A stretch of DNA of 56,820 nucleotides from an uncultured Gammaproteobacteria bacterium (GTDB taxonomy: Bacteria > Patescibacteriota > Patescibacteriia > UBA9934): contig CAYJQH010000004.1 of NCBI GenBank assembly GCA_964372415.1, positions 27,387-84,206 of the forward strand, read 5' to 3'. Positions within the stretch are counted from its first letter, which is position 1. Every line of letters starts with the position of its first letter. The position numbers were made by a program, and so were the translations under genes. Below, piece by piece: positions 13,584 to 32,431 of this stretch. The notes below the pieces were generated by a model. That model was not told the DNA's origin. It saw only the letters and a list, made by a program, of their open reading frames with translations, and did not search any database.

Positions 13584-13598
13584 AAATATAGTGGCAAG

Positions 13599-13627: not shown

Positions 13628-13637
13628 CAACATATCC

Positions 13638-13724: not shown

Positions 13725-13730
13725 TTTTAC

Positions 13731-14402: not shown

Positions 14403-14440
14403 AGGCTAGAAACCGACCCTGAGAGTCGTCTTTACAGTCA

Positions 14441-15736
14441 TTAGGTGAGCGTAATAAGTGCTCCAACAGCACGCAATTTACCATACAAATTTTCATACCC
14501 TCGTTCCAGGTGTTCGATACCAGTTATAGTGGACTGACCCTGAGCCACCAGGGCAGCGATAACGTAGGCTAAGCCGGCTCGAATATCAGGCACCTCAAGT
14601 GTGGTAGCGCGTAATTGAACCGGTCCTTTAATAACCGCCGAATGTTTATAGTTATGATCCCGAAAACGACAACTTATTTCGCCTAAACAATTGGTAAACA
14701 ACGTAATATCGGCCCCCATGTTTACTAAAGCATCGGCGTAAGCAAAGCGTTCTTGATAAACAGTTTCATGCACCACCGAGGTCCCTTCAGCTTGGGTAAG
14801 CGCCACAACAAACGGCTGCTGCCAATCTGTTCTAAAACCTGGAAAAGTATCAGTCTCAAGTTGTAAACCGCGATAACGAGCACTCCCCCTGAAGAGAATG
14901 CCGTCTTTCTGAACCTCAAAGCTTCCACCCAAGCGACGAACGGCATTCAAGAAAGTTACCAGATCGCGATGCTCCGCACCCTGACAAAAAATTTCGCCGC
15001 GGGTTGCGAGCGCTAAAGAACCCCACGAGGCCACCTCTATGCCGTCAGGTAATATCCGATGAACACAACCACTTAGGCTTTCAACGCCAATGACTTCAAT
15101 GTTTCTACCTGTTCCCATTTCGATAATCGCTCCCATCTTCTGGAGCATCATAATAAGCTCAACAATCTCAGGTTCGATAGCCGCGTTCCGAATAACGGTT
15201 CGTCCTTCGGCCAGCACAGCCGCGAGGAGTGTCGTTTCGGTAGCGCCGACTGAAGGATATGGCAAATCTATGACCGAGCCCTTGAGCTTCCCTTTGATTG
15301 TAGCGCGATATCCATCGTGGTCAGTTTCTATCTTTGCGCCCATTGTTTCCAAGGCGTCAAGGTGAAAATTCACTGGACGCGGGCCAATCTTGTCGCCACC
15401 CAAGGTTGGCACATACGCCTCCCCCGCCCGATGTAATAGCGGAGCGAGCGCGAGAATAGCTAATCGGTTCTTGCGTGACAGTTGCATGGCCGAAGTTGAG
15501 GCAATAGTTGAAGTTTGCAGCCTAAGCGTGTGTTCAACGAGGTCACTTTGTGCCCCGAGCATGGTTACGAGTTCGCGCGCAATGGCGGTTTCTTGCTGTA
15601 ATGGAACATTCTCAAGGACAACTTCCTCAGCTGTTAAGAGCGAAGCGATAATCATTTTAGAAGCTGCATTCTTGGCGCCAGTAATAAGCACTTCTCCCTT
15701 AAGGTGTTGCCCACCTGTAACCAAAAGATTTGGCAT
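14441..15736 (-). CDS. murA: UDP-N-acetylglucosamine 1-carboxyvinyltransferase
   Basis: GAKNA, RPVNFH, SVGAT, FPGFRTD, DIRAG motifs; GGDKIG (Asp at the usual Cys position). Confidence 0.95.
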   Translation of the reverse strand: MPNLLVTGGQHLKGEVLITGAKNAASKMIIASLLTAEEVVLENVPLQQETAIARELVTMLGAQSDLVEHTLRLQTSTIASTSAMQLSRKNRLAILALAPLLHRAGEAYVPTLGGDKIGPRPVNFHLDALETMGAKIETDHDGYRATIKGKLKGSVIDLPYPSVGATETTLLAAVLAEGRTVIRNAAIEPEIVELIMMLQKMGAIIEMGTGRNIEVIGVESLSGCVHRILPDGIEVASWGSLALATRGEIFCQGAEHRDLVTFLNAVRRLGGSFEVQKDGILFRGSARYRGLQLETDTFPGFRTDWQQPFVVALTQAEGTSVVHETVYQERFAYADALVNMGADITLFTNCLGEISCRFRDHNYKHSAVIKGPVQLRATTLEVPDIRAGLAYVIAALVAQGQSTITGIEHLERGYENLYGKLRAVGALITLT

Positions 15737-18620: not shown

Positions 18621-20969
18621 TTAAAAATCTAAAACCTTCACCCTCGGCTCTTCATCGATTATTTTTATTCGTATAGTGCCGTCCAGATCTGTTCTGTAAA
18701 TCTGGACTTTACTCATTTGCAGTCTGTCTATAACAAACGGGTCGGGGTGTCCGTAATTATTGTTTTCACCAACCGAAATAATGGCTATCTTTGGCTTCAC
18801 TGTGTCAAGAAACTCCGGTCCAGTGGAAGTTTCGCTTCCATGATGACCGACTTTGAGCACTCCAACCTCCCCTAGCCCCTCTTTCTGCAAGGAAGGAGCG
18901 TACTTTAATATCGGCTGCTCTTCCTGAACACCAGCATCGCCCATGAGCAACATTTTCCCCTCATTGGCTTCTAGAAGAAAAATCAGCGAGCCGTCGTTTG
19001 GATCTTCAAGCATCGCGCCGTCAAATGACTCCTTGGGCCACAGCGTCGTCAAAGTGACTCCCCCGCCAAGCTCAAGTACTTCCCCAGCTTTGATAACGCG
19101 ACGCTTGGATTCTGCCAGGCGAGAATATTCAGCAAATTCCGATGTGTCGTAGCCCTGATCAGCATCAATAACTTCAGATACCTGATAGCGCTCGAGAAGT
19201 GGCACAAGACCCGCCACATGGTCGGCATGCGGATGGGTATTAACCACAATGTCCACATTTCGATCCCACCACGGAAGAACTGCTGAAAGCTTTTCGAGCA
19301 CCGTAAAATCGGGTCCGCCGTCAATGAGTACATCTTTCTCTGGTCCGTCGATAAAAATGGCGTCGCCCTGACCAACATCGAATACCCAAACTGTAGTTCC
19401 AAGGTTCCCTCCTGTGATCCAGGCATAGCGCATTAAAAGACCAAAGGTCACAGCGGCGAAAAGCGTGGGCACCAACCAGCGTTTAGGAGCTGGCGAAATG
19501 GCCAACCCCCGCCTAGCCACCCTCACATTGTGGACGGGGAACAAGAGCAATATAGAAACGACAATAAGAGCCACACCTGCGACGAGTGTGGGGATATTAC
19601 TGAGCGAACGGATGATTTCGAGGATTGCCGACAAAAAAACCCAGGCTGGAAAGGCCAGCATGGCGCCGAGTCCTTGGTTAAGGGCACCGACGACTGTCGC
19701 TAAAGCTCCAAAGCCCATAGCGTATGGCACAAACGGCAAAACCAGGAGGTTGGCAATCGGGCCTATAGCAGCAAAGCGGCCAAAGTTAAGAAGCACAATC
19801 GGTAACGTCGCAATGGTCGCGGCAAGGGTGGTCGATAAAGCTTCGCGCAGGCCGAAAGCTTGCGGTATCCACCACAATCGTTCGCTCATTGGCCGTGACC
19901 ACCACAAAAGTCCAGCCGTCGAGAGCACCGACAACTGAAAACCGATGTCGTCGCGCAACAATCGAGGCTCAACGAGAAGCATAACAGCCACCGTGGTCAA
20001 CAAAATGTTTCGTGGCGATGTTTTGCGGCCGGTTTGCTTGGCCGTAAGGACAAGCGCCGCCATAATGCCGGCTCGAGTTACCGCTGCTTGAGCCCCAGCT
20101 ATGATGACAAAGGCAATAATGCCTAAAAGTAAAAGTGGAAAAGCCTCTTGGCGTCTAAAACCTAAGTGAAGCGCGAGCACAAAGAGCACACTTACGACAA
20201 TCGCCACGTTGGTCCCTGAAGCAGCGACGATATGCGAGGTTCCGGTTGAAATAAATCTTTCCTGCCATTCGTCGGAAAACGTATTGTCGCCAAGGAGAAG
20301 ACCAACAAGGAGCGTCGCCTGAGGCTCACCAAACGTACGCTCGATCACGGTCACTAGGCTGTTATGAAGATGGGCTAATTTGATTCTAAAACCCGTCGTG
20401 GCATACGGGTCGAGGATTATCGGTGCGTCATAAATTAGACACTGGCTATAAATGTCTTTAAGCGCTAAATATTTATCGTAAGCAAAGCCGTCGAATGGCT
20501 CGGGGGCTTCAAAAGCACAAGTAAGGGCAATGCGAGATCCAACAGGTATCTCAGGATAGCGTGGAACCGTCGCTAAGAGTTGGTCGTCGAAACTTTCGCC
20601 GTTTGCGGTGATCTCGTTTAGCGTGAGCCGTTGTCGATCGTCCAACTCACGTTTAACAACTATGGCCTCAACAGGGTGATGACCGCCGTTTAAAAGAGCG
20701 ATCGATTGCTCGCCCGGACCAACTGCGTTGTAACGAAGGCAACCGAGACCAAGACCGAGGGTCAGAAGCATGACATATACCGCTCGCCTTTCAAGAACCC
20801 CACCCGAGCCCTCTCCTATAGCGCGGAGAGGGAGCTGTTTAAGGAGAAACAGCGCGCAGGCAATAACCACGGTGACGATTGCCCAATGAAATTGCGAGGA
20901 TGCTAAAGCGATACCGGCAATGATGCCGGTCATGGCACTCGCCACGGCAAGTCCAGGAAGAAACCGCAC
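18621..20969 (-). CDS. comEC: ComEC/Rec2 DNA uptake channel with C-terminal metallo-beta-lactamase domain
   Basis: GTSHIVAASGTN, SVLSTAGL, DVGQGDA, THPHADHVAG, LKVGHHGS, YGHP. Confidence 0.95.
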   Translation of the reverse strand: MRFLPGLAVASAMTGIIAGIALASSQFHWAIVTVVIACALFLLKQLPLRAIGEGSGGVLERRAVYVMLLTLGLGLGCLRYNAVGPGEQSIALLNGGHHPVEAIVVKRELDDRQRLTLNEITANGESFDDQLLATVPRYPEIPVGSRIALTCAFEAPEPFDGFAYDKYLALKDIYSQCLIYDAPIILDPYATTGFRIKLAHLHNSLVTVIERTFGEPQATLLVGLLLGDNTFSDEWQERFISTGTSHIVAASGTNVAIVVSVLFVLALHLGFRRQEAFPLLLLGIIAFVIIAGAQAAVTRAGIMAALVLTAKQTGRKTSPRNILLTTVAVMLLVEPRLLRDDIGFQLSVLSTAGLLWWSRPMSERLWWIPQAFGLREALSTTLAATIATLPIVLLNFGRFAAIGPIANLLVLPFVPYAMGFGALATVVGALNQGLGAMLAFPAWVFLSAILEIIRSLSNIPTLVAGVALIVVSILLLFPVHNVRVARRGLAISPAPKRWLVPTLFAAVTFGLLMRYAWITGGNLGTTVWVFDVGQGDAIFIDGPEKDVLIDGGPDFTVLEKLSAVLPWWDRNVDIVVNTHPHADHVAGLVPLLERYQVSEVIDADQGYDTSEFAEYSRLAESKRRVIKAGEVLELGGGVTLTTLWPKESFDGAMLEDPNDGSLIFLLEANEGKMLLMGDAGVQEEQPILKYAPSLQKEGLGEVGVLKVGHHGSETSTGPEFLDTVKPKIAIISVGENNNYGHPDPFVIDRLQMSKVQIYRTDLDGTIRIKIIDEEPRVKVLDF
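18865..18898 (+). repeat. C-tail/hairpin element copy, in-frame in comEC (PSLQKEGLGEV)
   Basis: ACCTCCCCTAGCCCCTCTTT-CTGC-AAGGAAGGAG. Confidence 0.7.
19505..19542 (+). repeat. Degenerate C-tail/hairpin element copy, in-frame in the comEC linker
   Basis: ACCCCCGCCTAGCCACCCTCACATTGTGGACGGGGAAC, 28/38 identical (counted by hand) to the copy at 30214. Confidence 0.55.
20797..20834 (+). repeat. C-tail/hairpin element copy, in-frame in comEC (LPLRAIGEGSGGV)
   Basis: ACCCCACCCGAG-CCCTCTCC-tatagcgc-GGAGAGGG-AG. Confidence 0.7.
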
Positions 20970-20970
20970 A

Positions 20971-23844
20971 TTAAACCACGAAATTTACCAGTTTACCTTT
21001 TACTACAATCTCTTTTTTGGCTGGAGTGGTCAGATATTTTGCTACGTTGGTATCTTTCTTGGCTACTGCGACAAGTTCTGTGTCAGAAATATCGGCCGAA
21101 ACAACCACCTTAGCCCGAACTTTTCCATTCACCTGAATCACTATGGTCTGTTCATTATCAACAAGGAACTTTTTGTCAGCCGTGGGCCAGCTCTGTTCTT
21201 CGAGGAAACCCTCACCACCAAGTTTTTGCCACAGCTCATTACCGATATGTGGCGCAAAGGCGACGAGGACAGCCAAAAACTGTCCGAGGCTCTTCTTGGT
21301 AATGGTCGAGTCGCCAACGGCATTCACAAACTTCATGAGTTCAGACACCGCGGTGTTGAAACGGAAAGCGTCGATGTCTTCCGAAACTTTAGCAATAGTT
21401 TTATGAAGCGCCTTGGTAACCTCATGAGTCTCATTCTTCCCCACTCGCTCAGCCAGGCGGGTGACCTTCTCAAGGAAGCGACGAACACCAATTAGGCCGT
21501 TTGTTGACCACGGCACCGGCTCTTCGAAAGGTCCCATGAATAACAAATAGGTTCGCAAGGCATCGGCCCCGAATTCTTTGACGATATCGTCCGGGTTCAC
21601 TACGTTTCCCTTAGACTTACTCATCTTTGTCCCATCCTCAGCTAAAATTAGGCCGTGACTATGGCGGCGGGCATAGGGTTCGCTCGTTGGCACAAAACCT
21701 TGGTCGAACAAAAATTTGTTCCAGAAACGTGAGTACAAGAGGTGGAGCGTAGTGTGTTCCATGCCGCCGTTGTATAGGTCGACTGGCATCCAGTATTTGA
21801 GTTTCTTTTTGTCGGCGAATGCTTTAGCGTTACTCGAGTCGACGTAACGGAGGAAATACCAGCTTGAACCAGCCCAGTTGGGCATGGTGTCAGTCTCACG
21901 TGTCGCTTGACCATCACACTTAGGACAGGTGGTGTTCACCCACTCCTTAACATTGGCGAGCGGTGATTCACCGGTCTCGGTTGGTTCATACTTTTCGATC
22001 TTAGGAAGCTCAATTGGAAGATCTTTTTCGGGAACAGCAACCCAACCATCTTTAGCACAATGGACGAGCGGTATTGGCTCACCCCAATAACGCTGGCGAG
22101 AAAAAACCCAGTCACGTAGTTTATAGGTGACTTTCTTTTGTCCGATTTTTTTTGTCTCAAGCCAGGCAATAACCTTCTTTTTTGCTTCTGCCGTCGTTAG
22201 TCCGTCGAGGAAATCTGAATTTGTCGCCAAACCCTCACCGCTATAGCACTTCCCTTTCACGAGTTTATCGAACACATATTCGTGCAGTAACTCAATAACT
22301 TTACCGTCCGCATCCTTCTCGCTCAGCCATTCCACGTTAAACTTATTCTTTTCATTCTCTTCAAGTTTTTGATCAACTCGTTCGTCATTTACGAGTTCAA
22401 AGTACAAACCTATAGCATCAATGATCCGAGCCTTGTTCTTGGAGTAGGCAAAGTAATGATGGTGAATGGTTTCTGTTTTAGAAATAAACTTAAGATTGTT
22501 GTATCCCGTTTCTTCGGCAATTTCACGTTTGGCACATTCAATCGGATCTTCCCCTGCTTCAAGCCCGCCGCCCACGAATAAATTTCCACCGAGCTCTTTG
22601 CCCCAGTTAAGAGACAAGAACTTTTTGGTCTTCGGGTTGCGGACAACGGCCACAATGCTCTGACGATGTTCTTCGTTCGGTCGCGGCTCACCGGTGATTG
22701 GTTCGATGACCGTTTTTACCGGCAGATCAAAAGCTTGAGCAAAGGCATAATCGCGCTCGTCATGGGCTGGTACAGCCATGATGGCTCCGGTGCCATAGCC
22801 CGGAAGCACGTAGTCAGCTACCCAAATAGGGATTTCTTCACCGGTCGCTGGATTGATCGCCTTCACACCCTTAAGTTCGACGCCGGTTTTCTGCTTGTCC
22901 TCATTAGTTCGCTCAATATCAGTTTTCTTTTTTACACCGTCAACGTATTTTTTCACCTCTTTCTTATTCTCGAGCACATCGTGGTCCGAGTCGGTCGCCA
23001 ACGTAACCCAAAGATGCTCGGGGGCGAGAACGAGGTAAGTCGCACCAAAAATTGTGTCAGGTCGAGTAGTAAACACGGTCAGTTTTGCCTTCTCACCATT
23101 TGGTCCACGGTTCTTGTTTGCCTCCGGCTTAAAGCTAAAGTTAAGCCCAAAATCAATCTCGGCACCCTCACTCTTGCCAATCCAATCTTCTTGTTGCTTT
23201 TTGATTTTCGGAGGATAATCGACCGTTTTAAGGTCCTCGAGCAAACGATCGGCGTACTTGGTAATAGCAATCATCCATTGCTCTTTTTCTCTTTTTTCGA
23301 TTGGGGTACCGCAGCGCTCGCAGCAACCGCCAACCACCTCTTCGTTGGCGAGTCCCACTTTGTCCTTAGGACACCAGTTAACCATTGCCTTAGCTTTGTA
23401 GGCTAAACCAGCCTTAAAAAACAGAAGAAACATCCATTGCGTCCATTTGTAATATTCAGGATCTGTAGTTGAAAATTCGCGCGACCAATCAAAACTAAAA
23501 CCGAGAGACTTTAACTGTCGGCGGAAAGTGTCGATGTTTTGCTTAGTCGAAACCGAGGGATGGATGCCAGTTTTGATGGCGAAATTCTCGGCGGGTAAAC
23601 CGAAGGCGTCCCAGCCCATCGGGAATAACACGTTCTCACCCTGCATGCGATGCTTGCGAGCAATTACGTCAAGCGCGGTATAACTGCGTGGGTGTCCTAC
23701 ATGAAGACCGGTACCTGACGGGTATGGAAATTCAACGAGCAGGTAGGTTTTCTTTTGCTTGCTATTGTCTTTAGCCGCAAATATCTGGGACGCTTCCCAA
23801 TTGCCTTGCCATTTCTTTTCAAGCGACGCGTGGTCGTAGGACAT
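20971..23844 (-). CDS. leuS: Leucine--tRNA ligase with inserted Nudix domain
   Basis: FPYPSG.GLHVGH (HIGH), MGWDAFGLPAEN, FTTRPDT, KMSKS. Confidence 0.98.
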   Translation of the reverse strand: MSYDHASLEKKWQGNWEASQIFAAKDNSKQKKTYLLVEFPYPSGTGLHVGHPRSYTALDVIARKHRMQGENVLFPMGWDAFGLPAENFAIKTGIHPSVSTKQNIDTFRRQLKSLGFSFDWSREFSTTDPEYYKWTQWMFLLFFKAGLAYKAKAMVNWCPKDKVGLANEEVVGGCCERCGTPIEKREKEQWMIAITKYADRLLEDLKTVDYPPKIKKQQEDWIGKSEGAEIDFGLNFSFKPEANKNRGPNGEKAKLTVFTTRPDTIFGATYLVLAPEHLWVTLATDSDHDVLENKKEVKKYVDGVKKKTDIERTNEDKQKTGVELKGVKAINPATGEEIPIWVADYVLPGYGTGAIMAVPAHDERDYAFAQAFDLPVKTVIEPITGEPRPNEEHRQSIVAVVRNPKTKKFLSLNWGKELGGNLFVGGGLEAGEDPIECAKREIAEETGYNNLKFISKTETIHHHYFAYSKNKARIIDAIGLYFELVNDERVDQKLEENEKNKFNVEWLSEKDADGKVIELLHEYVFDKLVKGKCYSGEGLATNSDFLDGLTTAEAKKKVIAWLETKKIGQKKVTYKLRDWVFSRQRYWGEPIPLVHCAKDGWVAVPEKDLPIELPKIEKYEPTETGESPLANVKEWVNTTCPKCDGQATRETDTMPNWAGSSWYFLRYVDSSNAKAFADKKKLKYWMPVDLYNGGMEHTTLHLLYSRFWNKFLFDQGFVPTSEPYARRHSHGLILAEDGTKMSKSKGNVVNPDDIVKEFGADALRTYLLFMGPFEEPVPWSTNGLIGVRRFLEKVTRLAERVGKNETHEVTKALHKTIAKVSEDIDAFRFNTAVSELMKFVNAVGDSTITKKSLGQFLAVLVAFAPHIGNELWQKLGGEGFLEEQSWPTADKKFLVDNEQTIVIQVNGKVRAKVVVSADISDTELVAVAKKDTNVAKYLTTPAKKEIVVKGKLVNFVV

Positions 23845-23897
23845 ATTGTCCTACAGAGTAAAGAGGAAAAAGGAAAGAGTAAAGACTTTACCCTAGA

Positions 23898-25106
23898 TCA
23901 CCGTTTACTGGCTTCTTCAAGCCGCTCCAGAGCCAAAACAAAAGCAGCCCGTCGAAGGTCGACCTGGTATTTGGTCTTACGCTCCCACACTGCACCCGCA
24001 GCTTTTTCCATGTATTCCTTAAGCCTGGCGTCCACTTTTTCAGCCGACCACTTCTCTCCTCTCATGTTCTGCTCCCATTCAAAGCAACTAACCGTAACGC
24101 CACCCGCGTTAGCGAGAATGTCGGGAATCACCTCGATCTTCTTAGCAAAAAGAACATCATCAGCCTCAACCGTCGTTGGACCGTTAGCGAGCTCGAGAAC
24201 AACCTTTGCCTTAATGTCTTCGGCGTTATCTTTGGTAATTTGATTTTCGAGGGCAGCCGGCACCAAAACATCGCACACCAGCCCCAATAATTCTTCGTTG
24301 GAAATATTTTTCGTCCCCTCAAAATTCCGCACTGAGCCGGTGGCTTTTTTGTGGGCGTGCACTTTGTTAATGTCGAGACCATGTTCGTTAAAAATACCTC
24401 CCGACGAATCAGAAACGGCTATTACCTTGACCCCGTGCTTCAAGCAAATATCGGCAAAGGTGGCTCCTGCATTACCAAAACCCTGTACAACAACGGTCAT
24501 CTTGTTTACGTCGAGGTTCAGATTTTTGGCGAGGTGTAGGAGAACATACCAACCACCCATCGCCGTCGCCGTATCGCGACCAAGACTCCCTCCATGCTCA
24601 ATGCTCTTGCCGGTGACGACCGCCGGGTGACCAAATTCGTCGGCAATGGCGTCCATATCTGATGGTCCGGTATTCACATCAGGCGCCGGCACGTCGATCT
24701 CTGGTCCAATAACATCTCGAAAGGCCCTGGCCCAAGCGCGATCAAGTTGCTCACGTTCTGGGGCTGACAATTTTTTGGAATCAACCGCTATTCCACCTTT
24801 ACCACCACCCATGGGAATGCCGACAACCGCCGTTTTAAAAGTCATGAGCGCAGCCAGCGTTCGGACTTCATCAATGTCTACTTGAGGATGAAAGCGAATG
24901 CCGCCCTTAAATGGACCTCGCCAATTGTTGTGTTGAATACGGTAGGCGTCAAAAACTCGCTTTTCACCTTGGTCACTTGTGATTTCAAGTTTATGCTCAA
25001 TTTGCCGCATCGGTGTTTGCAATTTACCGTAGAGCTCAAGCTCAAAGGGTTTGACTGACATCGCCCGTTCTAGTTGGTGCAAAAAATTCTCGTATGCTTT
25101 TACCAT
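23898..25106 (-). CDS. gdhA: Glu/Leu/Phe/Val dehydrogenase (glutamate dehydrogenase)
   Basis: GPFKGGIRFHP, GGGKGG, DVPAPD, VQGFGNAG, LELANGP, LANAGGV. Confidence 0.93.
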   Translation of the reverse strand: MVKAYENFLHQLERAMSVKPFELELYGKLQTPMRQIEHKLEITSDQGEKRVFDAYRIQHNNWRGPFKGGIRFHPQVDIDEVRTLAALMTFKTAVVGIPMGGGKGGIAVDSKKLSAPEREQLDRAWARAFRDVIGPEIDVPAPDVNTGPSDMDAIADEFGHPAVVTGKSIEHGGSLGRDTATAMGGWYVLLHLAKNLNLDVNKMTVVVQGFGNAGATFADICLKHGVKVIAVSDSSGGIFNEHGLDINKVHAHKKATGSVRNFEGTKNISNEELLGLVCDVLVPAALENQITKDNAEDIKAKVVLELANGPTTVEADDVLFAKKIEVIPDILANAGGVTVSCFEWEQNMRGEKWSAEKVDARLKEYMEKAAGAVWERKTKYQVDLRRAAFVLALERLEEASKR

Positions 25107-25265
25107 ATAGAAATAGGGTAACACCTAAATGACTGCGGGGTACAATTTTATGTGACGAGGCTGCTCATTGACCACTAAATAATTAGACGGGACGAAAGAA
25201 CCCCTCACCCGCACCAAACGGGGGTTCTTTCAGTTTGTTACGTACCGTGTTAGGCTAATCGCCTT

Positions 25266-26291
25266 ATGCGTGGTCAACTGCCGCAAAAACTTGTCGAACG
25301 CCTCACCCAACAGTTTGGTCCAACCACCTTCCGCGAGATAGAACGCGCTTTTTCGGTTCGTCGATTACCAATATTTCGCGTCAATACCCTCAAGGCAACT
25401 GACGAGCAGATCATGGAGCTCATGCGAGAGCAAAATATAGCTTTCGAACGGGTGAAAAACGTGCCCCACGCCTTCAAAGTAAAAAACAAAAGCAACCACG
25501 AGCTCCTCGAGCTCCCAATTACTCAGCAAGGGCTTATCTATCTCCAAGGCATTACTTCGATGCTCCCTCCTCTATTCATCGAACCACAACCTCGCGAGGC
25601 AATTCTCGACCTGTGTGCCGCTCCGGGGAGTAAGACGACACAACTCGCGGCTTTATGTCTAACCTCCCCCTACCCCCTCCTTAACCAAGGAGGTGACGCT
25701 ATGCGACAACGTAGCACAAGGCGTTTCCCCCTTGCCTGCCCTGAGAGAAATCGAAGGGTTGAAGGGGGAGATCAAGAGGGGGTCAGTTCATGTCACATCC
25801 TGGCTGTAGAAGAAAACGCTATTCGATACCAAAAACTCGTAAACAGCCTCGAGACGCAAGGCGCCTCAAATGTCGAAACTCGCCACGGTGACTCAACACA
25901 ACTTCATAAGGAGTTTCCCGAGAGCTTCGACAAAGTCTTAGCCGATGTCCCCTGCTCGGCTGAGGGTCGCATTGACCTCAACGATCCGCGATCGTACAAG
26001 TATTGGTCGGAAAAAAACATCGTGGCCCACGCCAAGCTCCAACGCCGCTTGCTCCGATCGGCCGTAGCTTGTCTCAAACCTGGCGGCACGCTTGTCTACT
26101 CGACCTGCACCCTTGCTCCCGAAGAAAACGAAAAAATGATCGAGTGGCTAGTGGCCGAGTTTCCCCAAATGAAGCCGGTCGAAATCTCTGTTCCCCTCAA
26201 AGGCTCCCGAAAAACTGCATTCAAGACGTTCACCGTCCTCCCAACCGATGAGGCAGAAGGTTTTTTTGTGGCGAAACTTAAAAAAGTTTGA
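25266..26291 (+). CDS. RsmB/NOP2 family RNA m5C methyltransferase with ~40-aa repeat-derived insertion
   Basis: LDLCAAPGSKT, DVPCSAEG, VYSTCT, EENE, EGFFVA. Confidence 0.92.
   Translation: MRGQLPQKLVERLTQQFGPTTFREIERAFSVRRLPIFRVNTLKATDEQIMELMREQNIAFERVKNVPHAFKVKNKSNHELLELPITQQGLIYLQGITSMLPPLFIEPQPREAILDLCAAPGSKTTQLAALCLTSPYPLLNQGGDAMRQRSTRRFPLACPERNRRVEGGDQEGVSSCHILAVEENAIRYQKLVNSLETQGASNVETRHGDSTQLHKEFPESFDKVLADVPCSAEGRIDLNDPRSYKYWSEKNIVAHAKLQRRLLRSAVACLKPGGTLVYSTCTLAPEENEKMIEWLVAEFPQMKPVEISVPLKGSRKTAFKTFTVLPTDEAEGFFVAKLKKV
25662..25783. mobile_element. 122-bp MITE-like composite with two inverted C-tail/hairpin ends, in-frame in the methyltransferase
   Basis: Left ACCTCCCCCTACCCCCTCCTT-aacc-AAGGAGG; right (rc) ACCCCCTCTTGATCTCCCCCTT...AAGGGGG; nested CCCTGAG-N7-GAAGGG core at 25739-25758. 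Confidence 0.6.
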
Positions 26292-26349
26292 CTTTTAAGC
26301 TAAATTCTATTCAAATTGAATAAGGAACGTGCATTAGAACGGGGGGGTC

Positions 26350-26745
26350 ATGGAACTGGCGGAGATTACTCGACTAATTCTGACCACACTTGAGGTCAGA
26401 AAGAGCGTTCTTATCACCTACAAGTGCCAGGATAACAAAGCTGATCTAAAAATCAGCGAAGCTAAGCAGGTCTACTACGGGTTCTTCGAACACGGGACCG
26501 TGTTATTCGAGAGTCGGGCCTTGGAGGTCACAGGTAAAAAAGACTTGGAGTTGCAACGGGCGACACTCATTATCACCCCAGTAGGTGAAGTAAATCTCGA
26601 ACTAAGTGGACGTAAGTGGATCGGCGAACAACGCAAAAGGGTCGAGATCTTCGGAGAAGAAACCGTGGAACACCTTCATAAACGCCTTGGCAAACTAGTC
26701 ACCCTACAAGACATGGCTATTAAGATATTCGACTACGCGAGTTAA
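26350..26745 (+). CDS. Hypothetical protein
   Basis: 131-aa ORF, G-rich RBS-like run before ATG. Confidence 0.7.
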   Translation: MELAEITRLILTTLEVRKSVLITYKCQDNKADLKISEAKQVYYGFFEHGTVLFESRALEVTGKKDLELQRATLIITPVGEVNLELSGRKWIGEQRKRVEIFGEETVEHLHKRLGKLVTLQDMAIKIFDYAS

Positions 26746-26823
26746 CCCCCAATGATCCTTTTCTTCTAAAGAATCTCACGAGGCACGGCGCATCCCTCAG
26801 TTGCGCCGATTTTATTAAAACAA

Positions 26824-27747
26824 TCATTCCTGACTCGCTAACCATCGCTCAGCATCGAGCGCGGCCATGCAACCAGTCCCGGCAGCGGTCACGGCTTGCC
26901 TATAGTAGTGGTCTCCCACATCGCCGGCGGCAAAGACACCCTCAACGTTTGTTTTAGTGGAACGAGGCTCGGTCACGAGGTATCCCTTTTCGTCGAGCGT
27001 GAGTTGACCCTTGAACAAGGCGGTGTTCGGGGCGTGACCGATGGCCACAAAAAAGCCGTCAGTCTTTATTTCGTAAACATGCCCGGTGTCAGTATTTTTT
27101 ACTCGAATACCGGTCACTTTATCGGTACCGTGAACTTCTTCGACAACGACGTTTGTCAAAAATTCTATTTTCGGATTTTTTCTAGCTCGCTCTAACATGA
27201 TTTTTGAAGCGCGGAAAGTCTCGCTGCGATGAATGACAGTCACTTTGGTGGCAAATCGCGTCAGGAACATCGCCTCTTCCATGGCTGAGTCTCCCCCGCC
27301 GACGACGACCACCTCTTTGCCACGGAAAAAGAAACCGTCGCAAGTAGCGCATGCCGAAACACCTTTACCTTGGAACTCTTTTTCGCCGGGAATGCCTAGC
27401 CATTTGGCTGAAGCACCGGTTGCAATGATGATAGTCTTGGCTTCATATGTGACGCCAGCCGAAGTTGTAACCTTAAATGGTCGATTAGAAAAATCGACAT
27501 TAGTGATCATTTCGCTCTTTATCTCAGTACCAAAACGCAAAGCCTGCTTGCGCAGCTTCTCCATGAGGTCTGGCCCGAGCACACCATCAGCTTCACCGGG
27601 CCAGTTTTCAACATCCGACGTTAGCATCAGCTGCCCGCCAGGCTCAAGACCTGCAAACATGAGAGGTGCCATCTGCGCACGTGCAGCATAAATGGCAGCC
27701 GTGTACCCAGCTGGACCGGAGCCAATGATAATAACGTCATTGATCAT
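26824..27747 (-). CDS. trxB: Thioredoxin reductase
   Basis: IIGSGPAGYTAA, CATCDG, GGGDSAMEE, VFAAGDV. Confidence 0.97.
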   Translation of the reverse strand: MINDVIIIGSGPAGYTAAIYAARAQMAPLMFAGLEPGGQLMLTSDVENWPGEADGVLGPDLMEKLRKQALRFGTEIKSEMITNVDFSNRPFKVTTSAGVTYEAKTIIIATGASAKWLGIPGEKEFQGKGVSACATCDGFFFRGKEVVVVGGGDSAMEEAMFLTRFATKVTVIHRSETFRASKIMLERARKNPKIEFLTNVVVEEVHGTDKVTGIRVKNTDTGHVYEIKTDGFFVAIGHAPNTALFKGQLTLDEKGYLVTEPRSTKTNVEGVFAAGDVGDHYYRQAVTAAGTGCMAALDAERWLASQE

Positions 27748-27792
27748 AAACTTTAGTGTCGATCTACCCGACGGTACGTCGGGATCTACTAT

Positions 27793-28104
27793 CTACGAAA
27801 TGAGTGCCTGTAACCTCTCCTTAAGTGACTCCTTGGTCATGGATCCCGAAAATCGACCGACCTCGCTGCCGCCCTTCATTATAATGTAGGTGGGAATAGA
27901 TAGAATGTTAAAACGCATCGTGAGCTCACCGTTTTCGTCAACGTTCACCTTGGCGACCTCAAGATCAGGCATGTCATGGCTAAGCTCGTCGATGATCGGT
28001 CCCATAACTTTGCACGGTCCGCACCATGGCGCCCAAAAATCAATAAATACTGGTTTATTTGACTTAGTAACGAACGCATCGAAAGTTCCTGTGGTTAAAT
28101 CCAT
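27793..28104 (-). CDS. trxA: Thioredoxin
   Basis: DFWAPWCGPCK active site. Confidence 0.96.
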   Translation of the reverse strand: MDLTTGTFDAFVTKSNKPVFIDFWAPWCGPCKVMGPIIDELSHDMPDLEVAKVNVDENGELTMRFNILSIPTYIIMKGGSEVGRFSGSMTKESLKERLQALIS

Positions 28105-28108
28105 AGTC

Positions 28109-30175
28109 TTACACTTTGAGAATACGTGCTTGTTCTTCTTCTTGGTAGGCTTCGAGCGTATCACCAATCTCTACTTTCGTCTTACCTTGGAAGGCAATAC
28201 CGCAATCCTGACCGGCTACCACATCTTTAACCGAGGTTTTGCCCGATTGGAGTGCCTCGATTTTACCTTCACCTACCACTTGGCCACCACGAAAAATACG
28301 TAGCGTAGCTCCGGGAATGAGTTTTCCTTTCTTAACCTTGGCGCCAATAATCACCCCCTTGTCGGTCTTTTTAAATAAGGCCAAAACTTCACCGGAACCA
28401 AGCTCGGTGTACACCTTTTCCGAAGGAATAAGTTTTTTTAGACGCTCGACCACGTTTTCGAATAATTTATAAATTACAGACGAACTTTCAATAATTACAT
28501 TCTTGTCACGCGCCAGCTGTTCGGCGCCGGCTGCCTTAACGTTAAAGGCATAAACAACCGCTTGCGCGCCTTCGGCACGAAGCACGTCTGCATCCGTAAT
28601 ATTACCTAGACCTTTGCCGACTATTTTAACGCCAACATAAGGGTTTTCGACCTTCTCAATCATGCCAATTAAGGCTTCAAGAGAGCCCAGAACATCGGCT
28701 TTAACAACGATATTCAAATACACCTTGCCCTCTTCTTTCTTTTCCTCATCGGTCTTCGGGGCAGCAGTCTTCATGGCAATCTCGCCAACGCCGCCAGCCG
28801 CTCGACCAGCCTGTTCACGAAGTACTTCAAGGCTTGAGACATCTTCTGGGACTTCCAGAATGTCGCCAATCGATGGGGCTGCTTTAAGACCGAGAATTTT
28901 AACTGGGGTCGAAGGCGTTGCTTCTTTTATGTTTGAACCGTCATGCGCTTTCATAGCCCGAACGCGACCATAATTCATGCCACGTACAGCCATGGTGTCC
29001 TGCAGTTTGAGGGTTCCAGTTTGCACAAGAACAGTAGCTACAGGACCGGCACCCTTATCGACGCGAGATTCAATAATCGTTCCAACAGCGCGACGAGTGG
29101 GATCGGCTACGATACTGTCTTTCTCAAGGTCAGCGACGAATAAAAGCACGTCTAATAGACCGTCGATATTCATGTTCTTCTTGGCCGAAATCGGAACACA
29201 GATTGTTTTGCCACCCCAATCCTCAGGCACGAGCCCAAGCTCAGCAAGTTTGCTCTTCACGAGCTCGAGATTGGCGTCTGGTTTATCGATTTTGTTTATG
29301 GCCACGACAAAAGGCAGCTTAGCAGCTTTAATAATGTCGATAGCTTCCCTAGTTTGCGGCTGCACACCGTCATCGGCGGCCACGACGAGAATTGCAATAT
29401 CGGCTACCTTGGCGCCACGTGAACGCATGACCGTAAATGCCTCGTGACCTGGAGTATCGATAAATGTGAGCTTGCGCGAGATCCCTCGATCGCCTTCTAC
29501 TCCTCGGGATTTCGTGGCAGTCTTCGACTGCCACTCAACTTGATAGGCACCGATGTGCTGCGTAATTCCCCCAGCTTCGCCAGCCACTACATTAGCCTTA
29601 CGAATCGCGTCGAGGAGTGATGTCTTACCATGGTCAACGTGACCCATGACCACAATCACCGGGGCCCGCGGCTGAACTTTACCTTCTGCTTTCTCTTCTT
29701 CTTTAGCTTTTGCTAAACGATCTTCGCCACCGGTTGCGCCATCGTCTTTCTTCTCGCTTGCCGGTTCGGCGATAAAACCAAGATCTTCAGCCACGATGCT
29801 TGCTGTTTCAAAATCGATCCGCTCGTTCAAAGAAGCCAAAATGCCGCTCCTCATGAGCTCTTGCATAACCTTAGCAACCGGCAGATTGAGACTATTCGCA
29901 AAGTCACGAACCGTAACGGTTGGTGGAATCTGCACCCGCGGCGCATCACCGGCAAGCACCTGAGCCTTGCGGTCAGCCCGAGCTTTTTGTTCCTCCATTT
30001 TCTTCTGGAGGTACTGGCGCTTCTTGTGCTCCTGCCAAGCGTTCATGATCTTACCCACGTCACGATCGGGAAGCTTGATAGCTTTGTTCCCAATATCAAA
30101 TCCAAGCTCTGGGAGCTTGGCGCGCAATTCTTCGGTCGGTACCCGCAAACGCCGGGCAAGTTCGGAAATATTCAT
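28109..30175 (-). CDS. infB: Translation initiation factor IF-2
   Basis: [36 protein letters not shown]. Confidence 0.98.
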   Translation of the reverse strand: MNISELARRLRVPTEELRAKLPELGFDIGNKAIKLPDRDVGKIMNAWQEHKKRQYLQKKMEEQKARADRKAQVLAGDAPRVQIPPTVTVRDFANSLNLPVAKVMQELMRSGILASLNERIDFETASIVAEDLGFIAEPASEKKDDGATGGEDRLAKAKEEEKAEGKVQPRAPVIVVMGHVDHGKTSLLDAIRKANVVAGEAGGITQHIGAYQVEWQSKTATKSRGVEGDRGISRKLTFIDTPGHEAFTVMRSRGAKVADIAILVVAADDGVQPQTREAIDIIKAAKLPFVVAINKIDKPDANLELVKSKLAELGLVPEDWGGKTICVPISAKKNMNIDGLLDVLLFVADLEKDSIVADPTRRAVGTIIESRVDKGAGPVATVLVQTGTLKLQDTMAVRGMNYGRVRAMKAHDGSNIKEATPSTPVKILGLKAAPSIGDILEVPEDVSSLEVLREQAGRAAGGVGEIAMKTAAPKTDEEKKEEGKVYLNIVVKADVLGSLEALIGMIEKVENPYVGVKIVGKGLGNITDADVLRAEGAQAVVYAFNVKAAGAEQLARDKNVIIESSSVIYKLFENVVERLKKLIPSEKVYTELGSGEVLALFKKTDKGVIIGAKVKKGKLIPGATLRIFRGGQVVGEGKIEALQSGKTSVKDVVAGQDCGIAFQGKTKVEIGDTLEAYQEEEQARILKV
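29477..29533. repeat. In-frame double-hairpin insertion in infB
   Basis: cgagatccc...gggatttcg plus GTGGCAGTC-ttc-GACTGCCAC; encodes WQSKTATKSRGVEGDRGISR. Confidence 0.6.
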
Positions 30176-30213
30176 GCCGAAGAGCGTAGCGCAAAAAGCG
30201 CTCGCCGTAAAGG

Positions 30214-30661
30214 ACCTCCCCCTAACCCCCTCCACTTTGTGTAGGGAGAACTCGAGCGCTCCGCTCGGCTCTCTTCCGACGCAATACGTGTCGAATTTCT
30301 TCAAGCACGCTCTCGAGGCCACCAAGAACGTCACCGTTTGAGAAACGAATTACCTCGATATTCTGATCATTAATATAAGCTGTTCTGTTTGCATCATAAA
30401 TTTTCTTCTCAGGAGTGTAGTGAGGTGGACCATCAACTTCGATAACTAATCGATCCTCAGAACAATAAAAGTCGGCAATAAAAGGACCAATGTTGTGCTG
30501 TCGTCGAAACTTAGCATTTTCAACCTGTCGGTTCCTGAGATAGCGCCAAAGAAGGGCCTCGGCAAACGTTTCTTTCTTGCGCAGTATTTGTCGCCTCCAT
30601 AGATATAACCAGTTAAGCATAAAGCTCTCCCTCCACCAGGTGGAAGGAGTTAGAGGGAGGT
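30214..30661. mobile_element. 448-bp cassette: DUF559 endonuclease gene bounded by inverted C-tail/hairpin repeats
   Basis: Left ACCTCCCCCTAACCCCCTCC-actttgtgt-AGGGAG; right (rc) ACCTCCCTCTAACTCCTTCC-acctggt-GGAGGGAG; no target-site duplication seen. Confidence 0.6.
30222..30620 (-). CDS. DUF559 / Vsr-like endonuclease domain protein
   Basis: T.AE.LLW..LR, KFRRQHNIGPFIADFYC, LVIEVDG..H, D..R, EVIRFSN. Confidence 0.9.
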   Translation of the reverse strand: MLNWLYLWRRQILRKKETFAEALLWRYLRNRQVENAKFRRQHNIGPFIADFYCSEDRLVIEVDGPPHYTPEKKIYDANRTAYINDQNIEVIRFSNGDVLGGLESVLEEIRHVLRRKRAERSARVLPTQSGGG

Positions 30662-31158
30662 CAGTCTAACGCGTGCCGCAGCTGCACCTGCCGCGTGGTG
30701 GCACCACACGACCCAACTTCGAGTTGGTTTTGAAAAACGGCGAGGTAGTACCCCGGAAGGGCTGACGAAAACTGATCGTTTGGATCAACCGGAATAGCCG
30801 GTAGCAACTCTTCGCCTACGTATTCACGAAGATTTAGGCAGGCGTTAGAGGTCACCGGATCAGCGCATTGTTCACCGTGTGCGCCAGCACAATTACCTGA
30901 ACCAATGAGCACCTTGCCGTCCCCCGTACCTTTAAGTTGTTCGACTAGTCCAGCAAACTTTTGTGGATCCTCATTTTCAAGCTGAAGAACAGACGACATG
31001 AGAATCCTTACATGTTCGGCTCGCTCAATATCGCGTTCCTTAGCGATGACCCGCATGGGTCCCAAAATCATGACAATGACAAAACCTACAAAGAGCGCTA
31101 CAGCGAGTGCTGTAAGCACGTCGAGCTTCGTGACACCCATGTACTGACTGTGCGACAT
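30661..31158 (-). CDS. Type IV pilin-like protein (non-canonical N-terminal methylation motif)
   Basis: GVTKLDVL followed by a hydrophobic helix, then KERDIER (like KARDxxR); Cys pairs; IPVDP. Confidence 0.55.
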   Translation of the reverse strand: MSHSQYMGVTKLDVLTALAVALFVGFVIVMILGPMRVIAKERDIERAEHVRILMSSVLQLENEDPQKFAGLVEQLKGTGDGKVLIGSGNCAGAHGEQCADPVTSNACLNLREYVGEELLPAIPVDPNDQFSSALPGYYLAVFQNQLEVGSCGATTRQVQLRHALD

Positions 31159-31203
31159 GACAACATTGTAACAAAAAAACGGCGCTTGCGGCGTCGTCAC
31201 GGA

Positions 31204-31548
31204 TTAGTCGTCATCCCAGCCGTACACTTCTCGTTCGCCAACAGCGATTAGCTTTTCGACCAATTGGGGATTGTCTCTAATCCAGTCGTAGAGATCCTGT
31301 CCATCGGGGAAGCCCTCGAGATAGTCCCTCCTCGACACACGGTTGGCCAAAGGGGCAATGCCTCTCGTTTGACCACGCTTCCAGGCTTCGTAGTCCTCCG
31401 CATCCCAGTTGATTCTGATCGAAGCCATGAAAACAGGCACCCCGACAAGAACACTCTCTTTGAAGTGATCGGTAACGTACTTTTGGAATCCTTCTGGCGT
31501 CTTTGACAAGTCTTCCTTTCTTACAATCAAAATCGATCCACTACCCAT
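31204..31548 (-). CDS. Hypothetical protein
   Basis: 114-aa ORF with AAAGGAGG RBS. Confidence 0.7.
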   Translation of the reverse strand: MGSGSILIVRKEDLSKTPEGFQKYVTDHFKESVLVGVPVFMASIRINWDAEDYEAWKRGQTRGIAPLANRVSRRDYLEGFPDGQDLYDWIRDNPQLVEKLIAVGEREVYGWDDD

Positions 31549-31585
31549 GTACCCTCCTTTGAGGGTTAGAGCCTAATCGAAGAGT

Positions 31586-32431
31586 TTATCTTTGGCAAAT
31601 CGGACAGTAGTGTGTTCCCCGACCACCGAGCACGATTTTCTTAATTGGTGCCTCACACGTCTGACAAAGCTGACCGTCGCGACCGTAGACTTTAAGAAAG
31701 CTTAAGAAACTACCTTTCTCACCATCGGTATCAACATAATCGTTGGCACTTGTCCCTTTTTGGGCGAGTGATTCGGCCAGCACCTTCTTAACCTCGGTGA
31801 CGAGACGCAAGCGATCGTTCGCGGTGAGAGTGCCGAGTCGACGGGTCGGTCGAATACCCGCTCGATGACAAGCTTCGTCGGCGTAGATGTTCCCGACGCC
31901 CGCGATCGCTTCCTGGTCGAGTAGAGCCGCTTTCACTTTTCGCGTTTTCGGCGTTACAAGACAAGCCGCGAGCTCTTCGGCTGAGGTATCAAGGGGTTCG
32001 GGGCCGTAAATTTCCGTAGCCTGACGCAAACCGTCTGCGTCAACGAGGCGCAAGTAGCCAAACATTCGCACGTCAGACCAAACAAGGCGGTCGCCGCTGT
32101 CTAAAACGAATAACATACGGTCGTGCTTGGTAGGAGTGTAGACCCCCTCTGACTCCCCCTTACTTAAGGGTGAGACGCTCGGCAGAAACAAAAACTTACC
32201 AGTCATCTTGAGGTGCCCGAGCATCGCCCGACCGTCGTCGAGATGAAAAATAAGGAGCTTTGCTCGTCGAGCGACTTTAGCAATGCGGCTTCCAGTGACT
32301 GCTTCTGCGAATTTCTGTCCGTGAGGGCGTTCGCGGCCTGACTTGAAAACAGTCACTGTAGAGAGTATCTTGCCACGGAGATGCTTATCTAGTTGCTGAC
32401 GTATTGTTTCAACTTCGGGAAGTTCGGGCAT
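31586..32431 (-). CDS. mutM: Formamidopyrimidine-DNA glycosylase
   Basis: MPELPEVET, RRAKLL, HLKMTG, GVGNIYADE, C-terminal CxxC...CxxC zinc finger. Confidence 0.97.
   Translation of the reverse strand: MPELPEVETIRQQLDKHLRGKILSTVTVFKSGRERPHGQKFAEAVTGSRIAKVARRAKLLIFHLDDGRAMLGHLKMTGKFLFLPSVSPLSKGESEGVYTPTKHDRMLFVLDSGDRLVWSDVRMFGYLRLVDADGLRQATEIYGPEPLDTSAEELAACLVTPKTRKVKAALLDQEAIAGVGNIYADEACHRAGIRPTRRLGTLTANDRLRLVTEVKKVLAESLAQKGTSANDYVDTDGEKGSFLSFLKVYGRDGQLCQTCEAPIKKIVLGGRGTHYCPICQR
32142..32174 (+). repeat. C-tail/hairpin element copy, in-frame in mutM (SPLSKGESEGV)
   Basis: ACCCCCTCTGACTCCCCCTT-actt-AAGGGTGAG. Confidence 0.7.

Follow-up and report, generated by a model that had tools for sequence, protein, structure and literature searches.

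The window, the whole stretch of 56.8 kb analysed here, belongs to the genome of an ultra-small bacterium of Candidatus Uhrbacteria (CPR) and contains seven confirmed copies of a short repeat, each of 35-60 bases and all of one common architecture. Three protein-coding genes host such copies: comEC (18621-20969, minus strand; PF03772, PF00753), a gene for an RsmB/F-like rRNA m5C methyltransferase (25266-26291, plus strand; PF01189) and mutM/fpg (31586-32431, minus strand; PF01149, PF06831, PF06827). Between a pilin-like gene and the infB promoter, two further copies enclose a DUF559 gene in a cassette of 448 bp (30214-30661; element, gene, inverted element). Thus the repeat is present as solo elements (c1, c3, c8), as an inverted doublet (c4 and c5) and as the ends of the DUF559 cassette (c6, c7). 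Five of the seven copies (c1, c3, c4, c5, c8) are situated within open reading frames and are read through, and all host genes are still intact. A preliminary description had listed eight copies of one element, six of them in intact reading frames; seven and five, respectively, stood up to structural scans, while the candidate c2 at 19505 was lost from both counts.

The unit consists of a C-rich tail, a spacer of 2-5 nt and a hairpin of C-arm, loop and G-arm, in which the C-arm is the mirror image of the tail. Because of this mirroring, the blocks could stack on the G-rich strand as G.G-C, A.A-T and T.A-T triads. Judged from sequence, the defining feature is the combination of tail, spacer, mirror-symmetric C-arm and G-arm rather than a plain palindrome. 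The earlier designation as a palindromic element of ~35-40 bp was rejected as description in favour of the three-block mirror layout. On the C strand the spacers, of 3-5 nt in all seven copies, read TAA (c6, c7), TAG (c1), TAC (c4), TGA (c5, c8) and GAG (c3). Hairpin loops comprise 4-7 nt in six copies and 28 nt in c5. The DNA-fold z-scores of the hairpins by themselves were weak, ranging from -0.15 to -3.4.

The copies were located with explicit structural scanners written in Python; aligned with MAFFT, the copies matched too roughly for a covariance model. A degenerate pattern, ACCYCCNCYTARCCCCCTC, with at most 3 mismatches allowed, matched the window five times against 0.23 expected, and none of 100 shuffles reached five matches. 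The published rule for triplex motifs demands three blocks with stems of 6-15 nt, at most one mismatch and loops of 1-6 nt (PMC4666352). A strict three-block rule modelled on this ITxF rule, in which the hairpin loop was allowed a wider range of 3-10 nt, yielded c3, c4, c7 and c8 and no others in the window, compared to a mean of 0.3 matches in 20 Markov simulations; by the strict parse the loop of c7 has 7 nt, above the published limit. A relaxed rule, permitting up to 3 mismatches in total, gave 14 matches against 4.0 expected, so about four false matches per window have to be anticipated; it included c1, c5 and c6 in addition to the four strict matches, and its spans are used as copy coordinates. 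The seven copies are confined to 13.3 of the 56.8 kb (P ~0.0009 for seven random sites). A generic repeat search of the window did not recover the family, the copies being too short and gapped, and an Rfam search with the window elements and 13 DUF559 loci matched no family.

In comEC, the degenerate copy c1 (18862-18900, plus strand; relaxed scan) is translated from its G-rich strand as APSLQKEGLGEV. The region is six to eight codons longer than in ComEC orthologues, with ambiguous boundaries because the LGEV part aligns with LGD-I of the host protein. The copy c3 (20797-20832, plus strand) in the N-terminal region is a strict match with an 8-bp stem, has the sequence ACCCCACCC-GAG-CCCTCTCCT-ATAGCG-CGGAGAGGG and is translated as LPLRAIGEGSGGV; insertion is only plausible, since the four additional codons fall in a region that is unalignable with the orthologues. 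The claimed copy c2 (19505-19541, plus strand) failed the strict and the relaxed rule, is read in another frame and coincides with no indel relative to ComEC orthologues. It was rejected as a family member and is treated as a chance resemblance. Of three proposed insertions in comEC, sequence comparison thus leaves one that is probable and one that is ambiguous.

The gene of the RsmB/F-like methyltransferase carries an in-frame inverted doublet of 123 bp (25662-25784), which adds 41 amino acids. The left half, c4 (25661-25695, plus strand; strict match), reads AACCTCCCC-CTAC-CCCCTCCTT-AACC-AAGGAGGTG and is translated from the C-rich strand; its frame stays open because the spacer TAC replaces the TAA of c6 and c7. 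The right half, c5 (25724-25784, minus strand; relaxed scan), is inverted relative to c4, has the sequence GACCCCCTCT-TGA-TCTCCCCCTT-(28-nt loop)-AAGGGGGAAA and has tail and arm in common with c8. The 41-residue segment corresponds exactly to the doublet, is missing from the 72 % identical orthologues of two relatives (L080, L081) and is positioned in the loop that leads from SAM motif I to the following strand. In mutM, the strict match c8 (32141-32174, plus strand), with the sequence GACCCCCTC-TGA-CTCCCCCTT-ACTT-AAGGGTGAG, is translated from the G-rich strand as SPLSKGESEGV. Net, eleven amino acids are gained that are missing from orthologues of 65-72 % identity, and the insert lies in a coil between two strands in the predicted structure (pLDDT 65-70). 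For both proteins, the presence/absence borders against the orthologues coincide with the element boundaries. Triplex-type inserts of independent origin are present in other CPR mutM genes: that of L087 occupies the same loop, that of L086 a second one. No target-site duplication was visible at the RsmB/F, MutM and cassette junctions. The elements were therefore not assigned to the MITEs, although the doublet and the cassette ends are inverted.

By these comparisons, at least three in-gene copies add surface-loop peptides to their host proteins. The expectations of the preliminary description on added peptides and on their placement in loops were borne out for MutM and RsmB/F, and motif-free orthologues with the same peptide segments were not seen for either protein. 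The relatedness of the encoded peptides (..G-E/G-G-V) was also confirmed, and is explained by four copies being read from the G strand in the same tail-end frame, which closes with G-V codons.

The cassette is bordered on the left by c6 (30214-30248, plus strand; relaxed scan), which has a perfect tail/arm mirror (CCTCCCCC TAA CCCCCTCC) and a decayed G-arm, and on the right by c7 (30627-30661, minus strand; strict match). Both are mutually inverted, with 18 of the 21 outer nucleotides identical. The stop codon of DUF559, TAG, falls within c6, c7 overlaps with that of the pilin-like gene upstream (TGA), and the G-arm of c7 places GGAG 6 nt 5' of the DUF559 ATG. The bracketed gene (30222-30620, minus strand) is intact and codes for 132 amino acids, as a nuclease gene of the DUF559 family, in agreement with the initial reading: PF04480, a family with a Vsr-like PD-(D/E)xK fold, was matched with an E value of 2.1e-30 (positions 8-108 of a profile of 109), and the best PDB match was 3HRL (E 2.6e-18). 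In an alignment of 22 DUF559 proteins, including that of the window, D50, E61, D63, H67 and D76 were invariant. The papers surveyed on DUF559 report neither a nuclease activity nor a cut site or target duplication. The window has no other DUF559 gene, and the seven copies lie within ~12 kb of this one. Given the divergence of the copies and the decay of several (c1, c6), any spread has to be old.

The repeats fit a published class, the BoxC/PIT/intrastrand triplex motif (TM, TMECO), described from E. coli and over 260 further genomes (Holder et al. 2015, PMC4666352, with earlier BoxC/PIT papers by Bergler, Bachellier and Hoyne/Maher cited therein), which the preliminary description had not recognized; they are hence not a new kind of repeat. 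Both have blocks following the triad rule, are rich in G and C, measure ~35 nt and have as second loop TAA, which is TTA on the G strand, or a CGG-type sequence; the window copies agree with the composition of class II (G strand) and class III (C strand), in which this loop is of the TTA or CCG type. Both also occur as singles or inverted pairs and are tied to local sequence variability. In contrast to the E. coli elements, which were reported to be always intergenic and without an associated mobility gene, the window copies are in the majority intragenic and translated, and the other two enclose a nuclease gene; they are also more degenerate, one having the long loop. The survey of 2015 stated explicitly that no mobility gene was found near the repeats (PMC4666352). 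The assignment to this class together with an origin of the in-gene copies by insertion is held with high confidence. As far as we found, the class is known, but its in-gene lifestyle and a link to a nuclease are not in print; a literature search on in-frame palindromic repeat insertions in Patescibacteria gave nothing relevant among the top papers listed, none of which mentions Patescibacteria.

Other systems share single traits with the locus. REP/REPIN-RAYT (PMC3116915, PMC3733652) likewise comprises a short folded repeat in dispersed singlets and inverted doublets and a single-copy enzyme gene framed by inverted repeats, with solo repeats far outnumbering enzyme genes. The enzyme of the window is, however, a Vsr-like PD-(D/E)xK protein (PF04480), whereas RAYT is an HUH/Y1 transposase of the IS200/IS605-like type; the tail is mirror-symmetric instead of carrying the GTAG/CGTC tag, and REPs are extragenic, whereas the window elements also reside in frame within genes. 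Membership in the REP family was rejected, the framed enzyme being DUF559 and not an HUH/Y1 transposase. Rickettsia palindromic elements (RPEs) have a size of roughly 100-150 bp. Like in-frame MITEs, e.g., of Coxiella, they are selfish palindromes in the frames of housekeeping genes, with the inserts kept as extra surface peptides (PMC10969869, PMC1779305, PMC5896051). The analogy to RPEs drawn earlier holds for this in-frame lifestyle but not for architecture, size and phylum: RPEs are restricted to Rickettsia, unrelated in sequence and without a candidate enzyme, whereas the window units of ~35 nt (123 nt for the doublet) are of a type found across phyla and associated with DUF559, so that membership was rejected. 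Finally, I-Bth0305I, a proven Vsr-like homing endonuclease (PMC3424549, PMC2677866), represents the superfamily clade of DUF559, the EDxHD nucleases (PMC3424549), and together with the 'fractured gene' case (PMC2677866) provides a precedent for a selfish, DNA-targeting role. Such enzymes reside in group I introns or lie between the halves of split inteins, whereas the DUF559 gene of the window stands free between repeats; neither an Rfam intron match nor an intein domain was found at this gene, and residence of the homing type was rejected.

The neighborhood of DUF559 genes was inspected in 79 loci from many phyla, which were obtained with a six-sequence alignment as query. An element was present within 300 nt of the DUF559 gene in 63 of the 79 loci, and on both sides in 45. 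Of 224 elements at these loci, 145 were within 200 nt of the DUF559 gene match, a zone amounting to 7.4 % of the sequence; with the three-block rule, 172 of 232 elements were within 300 nt (~13 % of the sequence), a positional enrichment of ~6-fold. Perfect agreement between a tail and its own arm under the triad rule was found in 58 % of the 224 elements, compared to 12 % with swapped tails and 12.5 % in direct order. Spacers at these loci are TAA, TAG, CAG or CGG. At two-sided loci the flanking elements were inverted in 29 of 45 cases (P 0.036), thus their orientation is not fixed. At locus L001, the DUF559 gene is read through in frame. In E. coli, a TMECO copy adjoins ycjD, a DUF559 gene, in the same layout with a TAA spacer, and is nearly identical to the DUF559-flanking elements of other phyla. 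When the motif was taken as the starting point, DUF559 lay within 300 nt of only 3 of the 88 exact copies of the window variant on metagenome contigs. The surveyed papers that mention DUF559 describe no flanking repeats; the one related report is an enrichment of DUF559 proteins among predicted inversion targets, with an odds ratio of 14.3 (PMC9881135). The link between DUF559 and the repeat across phyla is thus supported as an association only, and DUF559 may be the missing enzyme partner of the repeat.

Comparison with related genomes completes the picture. Along ~34 kb of syntenic DNA, the closest relative carries neither DUF559 nor any of the seven elements. In the syntenic relatives L080-L083, DUF559 is absent from the pilin-infB site, where the spacer measures 131-171 nt. 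On a related CPR contig, L086, a stretch of 20 kb contains 5 good elements and is free of DUF559; one element directly follows the pilin-like gene and thus matches c7 in site and orientation. In assembled contigs of three metagenome runs, the region was unchanged at the elements and no empty-site variant appeared. These contigs also included one joint of position 25783 to 30430, with a side of 21 nt, which is too weak to interpret.

We regard as probable, though far from certain, that the window repeats make up one family, with solo, doublet and cassette forms, which is associated with a Vsr-like nuclease and resembles REP/RAYT, and, as part of the same explanation, that the similarity of the insert peptides reflects the DNA and not a selected function. 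The repeats are taken as the local version of BoxC/PIT/TM, each unit having a pyrimidine tail, a short spacer and a hairpin in which the C-arm is the mirror image of the tail. Solo and doublet units have inserted into protein-coding genes, where survival is expected only for copies in permissive loops and stop-free frames, and the survivors are translated as extra loop peptides. The DUF559 nuclease might recognize the folded element and nick at or near it, and repair or replication might then copy the element, preferentially nearby; this would be a repeat-plus-enzyme partnership like REP/REPIN-RAYT with an unrelated nuclease fold. That DUF559 acts on the repeat is a step we consider rather doubtful. 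Still more tentative is the full proposal that DUF559 is the long-missing BoxC/PIT partner, recognizing the folded three-block element, seeding new copies with a preference for the ~10 kb around its own gene and colonising the gene-dense coding DNA of CPR genomes, the coding sequence being accessible because elements are stop-free in some frames.

The dependence may also be reversed: a host process, such as slippage of replication at the folded structure, gene conversion or recombination, would spread and maintain the repeats, and DUF559 would home as a passenger into or next to pre-existing repeats, so that the solo copies were not moved by the nuclease. The large excess of solo copies over cassettes, with the low number of motif copies near DUF559, the element of L086 at the site and in the orientation of c7 without the gene, the varying orientation of flanking elements and the existence of a homing endonuclease among Vsr-like nucleases (I-Bth0305I; PMC3424549, PMC2677866) agree with it. 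Left unexplained are the clustering of copies within ~12 kb of the only DUF559 gene of the window and the joint absence of gene and elements in the closest relative; moreover, cassettes across phyla are usually two-sided, as if the ends belonged to the unit. We consider this reversed order rather unlikely. Sequences useful to the host, such as terminators, hairpins at ribosome binding sites or replication pause sites, with the in-gene copies as selected loop peptides, would account for the position of c7 directly 3' of a stop codon with its GGAG ahead of the DUF559 start, for the element at the same gene end in L086 and for the intactness of all host genes. The peptides are missing from close orthologues, however, lie in loops predicted with low confidence and occur in unrelated proteins and in differing orientation (c4 versus c5), and E. 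coli triplex elements showed no promoter or terminator activity in published tests (PMC4666352), which renders host use improbable. A chance resemblance of C-rich stretches in a genome of 50 % GC describes c2 well, and the weak hairpins and the false matches of the relaxed scan point in the same direction. For the other seven of the eight claimed copies it was rejected as extremely improbable: the pattern and the strict rule both matched far above expectation, which excludes a motif frequency equal to chance, the copies are clustered, and presence or absence in orthologues changes exactly at the element boundaries.

Repeats of the BoxC/triplex-motif type were first described in the 1990s and occur in hundreds of genomes, with no known function, origin or enzyme. 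Their pairing across phyla with one small nuclease family supplies a concrete hypothesis, testable in E. coli K-12 with ycjD and TMECO. The window shows that they occur outside intergenic DNA as well: in this gene-dense CPR genome they are translated in genes for DNA repair, rRNA modification and DNA uptake. As in-gene, translated repeats they make proteins vary in length and give rise to spurious 'lineage-specific inserts' in alignments. Low-complexity peptides rich in proline and glycine in bacterial proteins, such as PLSKGESEGV, LTPNPSPxGEG and RRGLGGG, become readable as footprints of the element. If DUF559 were indeed the partner, this would be a second, independent symbiosis of repeat and enzyme alongside REP/RAYT, and a steady supply of loop insertions in essential proteins.

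Seven of the eight sites that the preliminary description had counted as copies of one element (c1 to c8) share a common layout. On the C-rich strand they read as RACC and a C-rich tail, a spacer of 2-5 nt and then a hairpin, in which a loop separates the C-rich arm from the G-rich arm that pairs with it. The spacer is TAA in c6 and c7, TAG in c1, TAC in c4, TGA in c5 and c8, and GAG in c3. The remaining site, c2 (19505), failed all structural tests, lies in another reading frame and does not differ in length from the orthologues; it was rejected as a member of the family. Taken alone, the hairpins are modest (z-scores of -0.15 to -3.4, DNA fold). The informative feature is the tail, which mirrors the C-arm, e.g., CCTCCCCC-TAA-CCCCCTCC in c6. 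The same grammar of mirror plus hairpin was described by Holder et al. 2015 (PMC4666352) for the intrastrand triplex motifs, earlier called BoxC and PIT elements. These motifs are present in more than 260 genomes; on the G strand their blocks form G.G-C, A.A-T and T.A-T triads, and in vitro the E. coli consensus folds into a triplex (PMC4666352). By its sequence, the element is a repeat of the triplex-motif class; no Rfam family matches it.

When up to 3 mismatches were allowed, a degenerate pattern yielded 5 matches versus 0.23 expected, and at least 5 were obtained in none of 100 shuffles. A strict three-block scanner combined a Watson-Crick hairpin with a tail obeying C-with-C and T-with-T/A; its stems followed the published ITxF finder (at least 6 nt, one mismatch from 7 nt), while the loop was widened to 3-10 nt from the published 1-6. 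In the whole 56.8-kb window it returned exactly four sites (c3, c4, c7 and c8) against a simulation mean of 0.3. The frequency thus exceeds the chance level that the preliminary description had considered, and chance is a weak explanation of the repeats. The relaxed three-block scan gave 14 matches versus 4.0 expected, among them c1, c3, c4, c5, c6, c7 and c8. The seven copies are clustered locally within 18862-32174 (P ~0.0009 for seven random sites in such a span).

The host genes of the intragenic copies were assigned by Pfam, as was IF-2: ComEC (18621-20969, minus strand), an RsmB/F-like methyltransferase (25266-26291, plus strand) and MutM/Fpg (31586-32431, minus strand). Compared by sequence, the segments in MutM and RsmB/F are insertions relative to the orthologues. 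MutM has 281 aa in the window versus 269-273 aa in its nearest homologues (65-72 % identical), and the c8 site reads FLP-SVSPLSKGESEGV-YTPTKHD versus FVPK-DYK-SNKHD; at the codon level, 2 codons of the homologues are replaced by 13. In RsmB/F, 47 codons correspond to six (ADNQAK) in two orthologues with 72 % identity, and the extra 41 codons (123 nt, ACC TCC ... GGG GTC) coincide exactly with c4 plus the inverted c5. Both inserts lie in loops, as the preliminary description had anticipated. In the AlphaFold model of the window's MutM (mean pLDDT 87.4) the insert is a coil flanked by strands 78-83 and 104-110, with a local drop of pLDDT to 65-70. PDB alignments place the RsmB/F insert between SAM motif I and the following strand (residues 131-178 of the query, 140-148 of the 1ixk chain). 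For ComEC the claim of three inserts held in part: c1 adds 6-8 codons relative to the orthologues, its boundaries being uncertain because the LGEV end aligns with the host LGD-I; c3 adds 4 codons within an unalignable stretch; c2 adds none. The proposed relatedness of the encoded peptides applies to c1, c3, c5 and c8, which share ..G-(E/G)-G-V peptides because at their tail ends the G-rich strand is translated in one common frame, with codons closing in G-V. In c4 the C-rich strand is the one translated; with TAC instead of the TAA of c6 and c7, it has no stop. E. coli triplex motifs are described as 'always located intergenically' (PMC4666352).

The RsmB/F doublet (25661-25784) joins two sub-types, c4 with the tail ACCTCCCC and c5 with the tail GACCCCCTC, the latter common to c8. 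[quoted passage not shown] As a separate observation, the leucyl-tRNA synthetase (20971-23844, minus strand) contains a NUDIX hydrolase domain (PF00293, aa 393-512) right behind the editing domain, as does the 968-aa orthologue of the closest relative.

As previously proposed, c6 and c7 bracket a DUF559 gene (30222-30620, minus strand), which encodes a protein of 132 aa (PF04480, E 2.1e-30) matched by PDB 3HRL (E 2.6e-18). It retains D50, E61, D63, H67 and D76, all the invariant residues of an alignment of 22 proteins that includes the window's own. The enclosing copies are inverted, with 18/21 outer nucleotides identical. The TAG stop of the DUF559 gene lies in c6; at the other end, c7 and the TGA stop of the upstream pilin-like gene overlap. 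The G-arm of c7 provides GGAG 6 nt ahead of the DUF559 ATG (30627-30640), so folding of the element could mask the ribosome-binding site. The outer edge of c6 is bordered by a CTTTAC...GCTA(A/C)GCT stretch before infB that is conserved in relatives.

The cassette with its inverted ends is absent from relatives. Four syntenic loci keep the gene order mutM, pilin-like gene, infB, trx, trxB, and none of the four has a DUF559 gene at the pilin-infB position, where the spacer measures 131-171 nt. A tblastn search of the window and the related loci found DUF559 in the window only. About 34 kb of syntenic DNA of the closest relative (L080/L082 and L210) contained none of the seven elements and no DUF559 gene, with one weak 7-nt element match at chance level. 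The pilin-infB spacer of this relative (L080 2850-2955) holds a 26-nt inverted repeat (about 22/26 positions matching) whose ends are roughly 62 nt apart, one of which, GACCTCTCCTTAAC, resembles the c7 tail; it may be an element remnant or an unrelated terminator. In the assembled contigs of three runs the region was identical, without empty-site alleles. In run X1, position 25783 (the outer end of c5) is connected on one contig with position 30430, which lies within the DUF559 gene; the shorter side measures 21 nt, too little to separate a real rearrangement from the sequence of another organism.

Independent inserts also occur in the MutM orthologues from other CPR bacteria. One (L087) has a C6-type triplex element at the loop that holds the window's copy, but in opposite orientation, another (L086) a canonical element, CCCCCTCCTTTCAAAGGAGGGGG-CCA-GGGGGAGG, in a second loop. 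In a third (L088, 10001-10867) the in-frame insert, located in the second variable loop, derives from a different palindrome of heptamer repeats (CGTCGCA x3 ... GCGGGAC x3); different kinds of hairpin repeat have therefore colonised MutM. Five good elements were present in 20 kb of L086, one directly 3' of the stop of a pilin-like gene, in the place and orientation of c7; this stretch has no DUF559 gene. The same pilin-infB gap that holds the DUF559 cassette in the window is occupied there (13373-14762) by a reverse transcriptase (RVT_1) and a bAvd-like gene, likely a diversity-generating retroelement.

Across phyla, DUF559 genes show a strong positional association with the elements. A DUF559 peptide pattern run against 185,579 species genomes gave 436 confirmed stretches, and the best 79 loci were analysed (Bacteroidota, Cyanobacteria, Chloroflexota, Pseudomonadota, Planctomycetota, Nitrospirota and others). 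A symmetry-blind detector (C/T arm, loop, G arm, C-rich 14-nt tail; mirror not required) found 224 elements in 425 kb of DUF559 loci, 145 of them no farther than 200 nt from the DUF559 match, a zone of 7.4 % of the sequence. Among these best 79 loci, 63 had an element within 300 nt and 45 on both sides; under the three-block rule, 172/232 elements were within 300 nt of the gene. The mirror of tail and arm was first spotted by eye and later tested formally for covariation. Tails and arms vary together (CCTCACCCC with CCCCTCTCC, CCTCATCCC with CCCTTCTCC, CCTCCTCC with CCTCCTCC), and all triads were satisfied with the own arm in 58 % of the elements versus 12 % for swapped tails or direct order. 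In a Bacteroidales locus (L001, 1330-3753) the ORF of an 807-aa type III-like DNA methyltransferase reads straight across a DUF559 cassette and also traverses two solo triplex-type elements, LTPGPSPNGEGSEV and PLSIWRGAGGEV. In E. coli K-12, the DUF559 gene ycjD adjoins fabI, and a canonical element, CCCCTCACCC TAA CCCTCTCCCC AGA GGGGCGAGGG, follows about 170 nt past the ycjD stop.

The reverse test, starting from the motif, tempers this association. The window's variant GACCTCCCYCTAACYCCYTCC was matched exactly 88 times in metagenome contigs, and in only 3 of these cases did DUF559 lie within 300 nt (1.2 % of the sequence is that close); solo copies therefore dominate, as they do for REP and RAYT. 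Twenty-one of 64 evaluable matches lay in frames that stayed open for 50 codons or more both before and after the element, so a sizeable minority of the copies is intragenic. The main rival explanation, that the repeats spread by other means and DUF559 genes home into pre-existing copies, is in our view rather unlikely but close in probability to the reading offered below; a function for the host is a weak explanation. No paper linking DUF559 with triplex-motif repeats was found in the literature search, the nearest item being that predicted inversion targets are enriched in DUF559 proteins (odds ratio 14.3, PMC9881135). We tentatively suggest, as a possible reading, that DUF559 would recognise and nick the folded element and thereby spread its copies.
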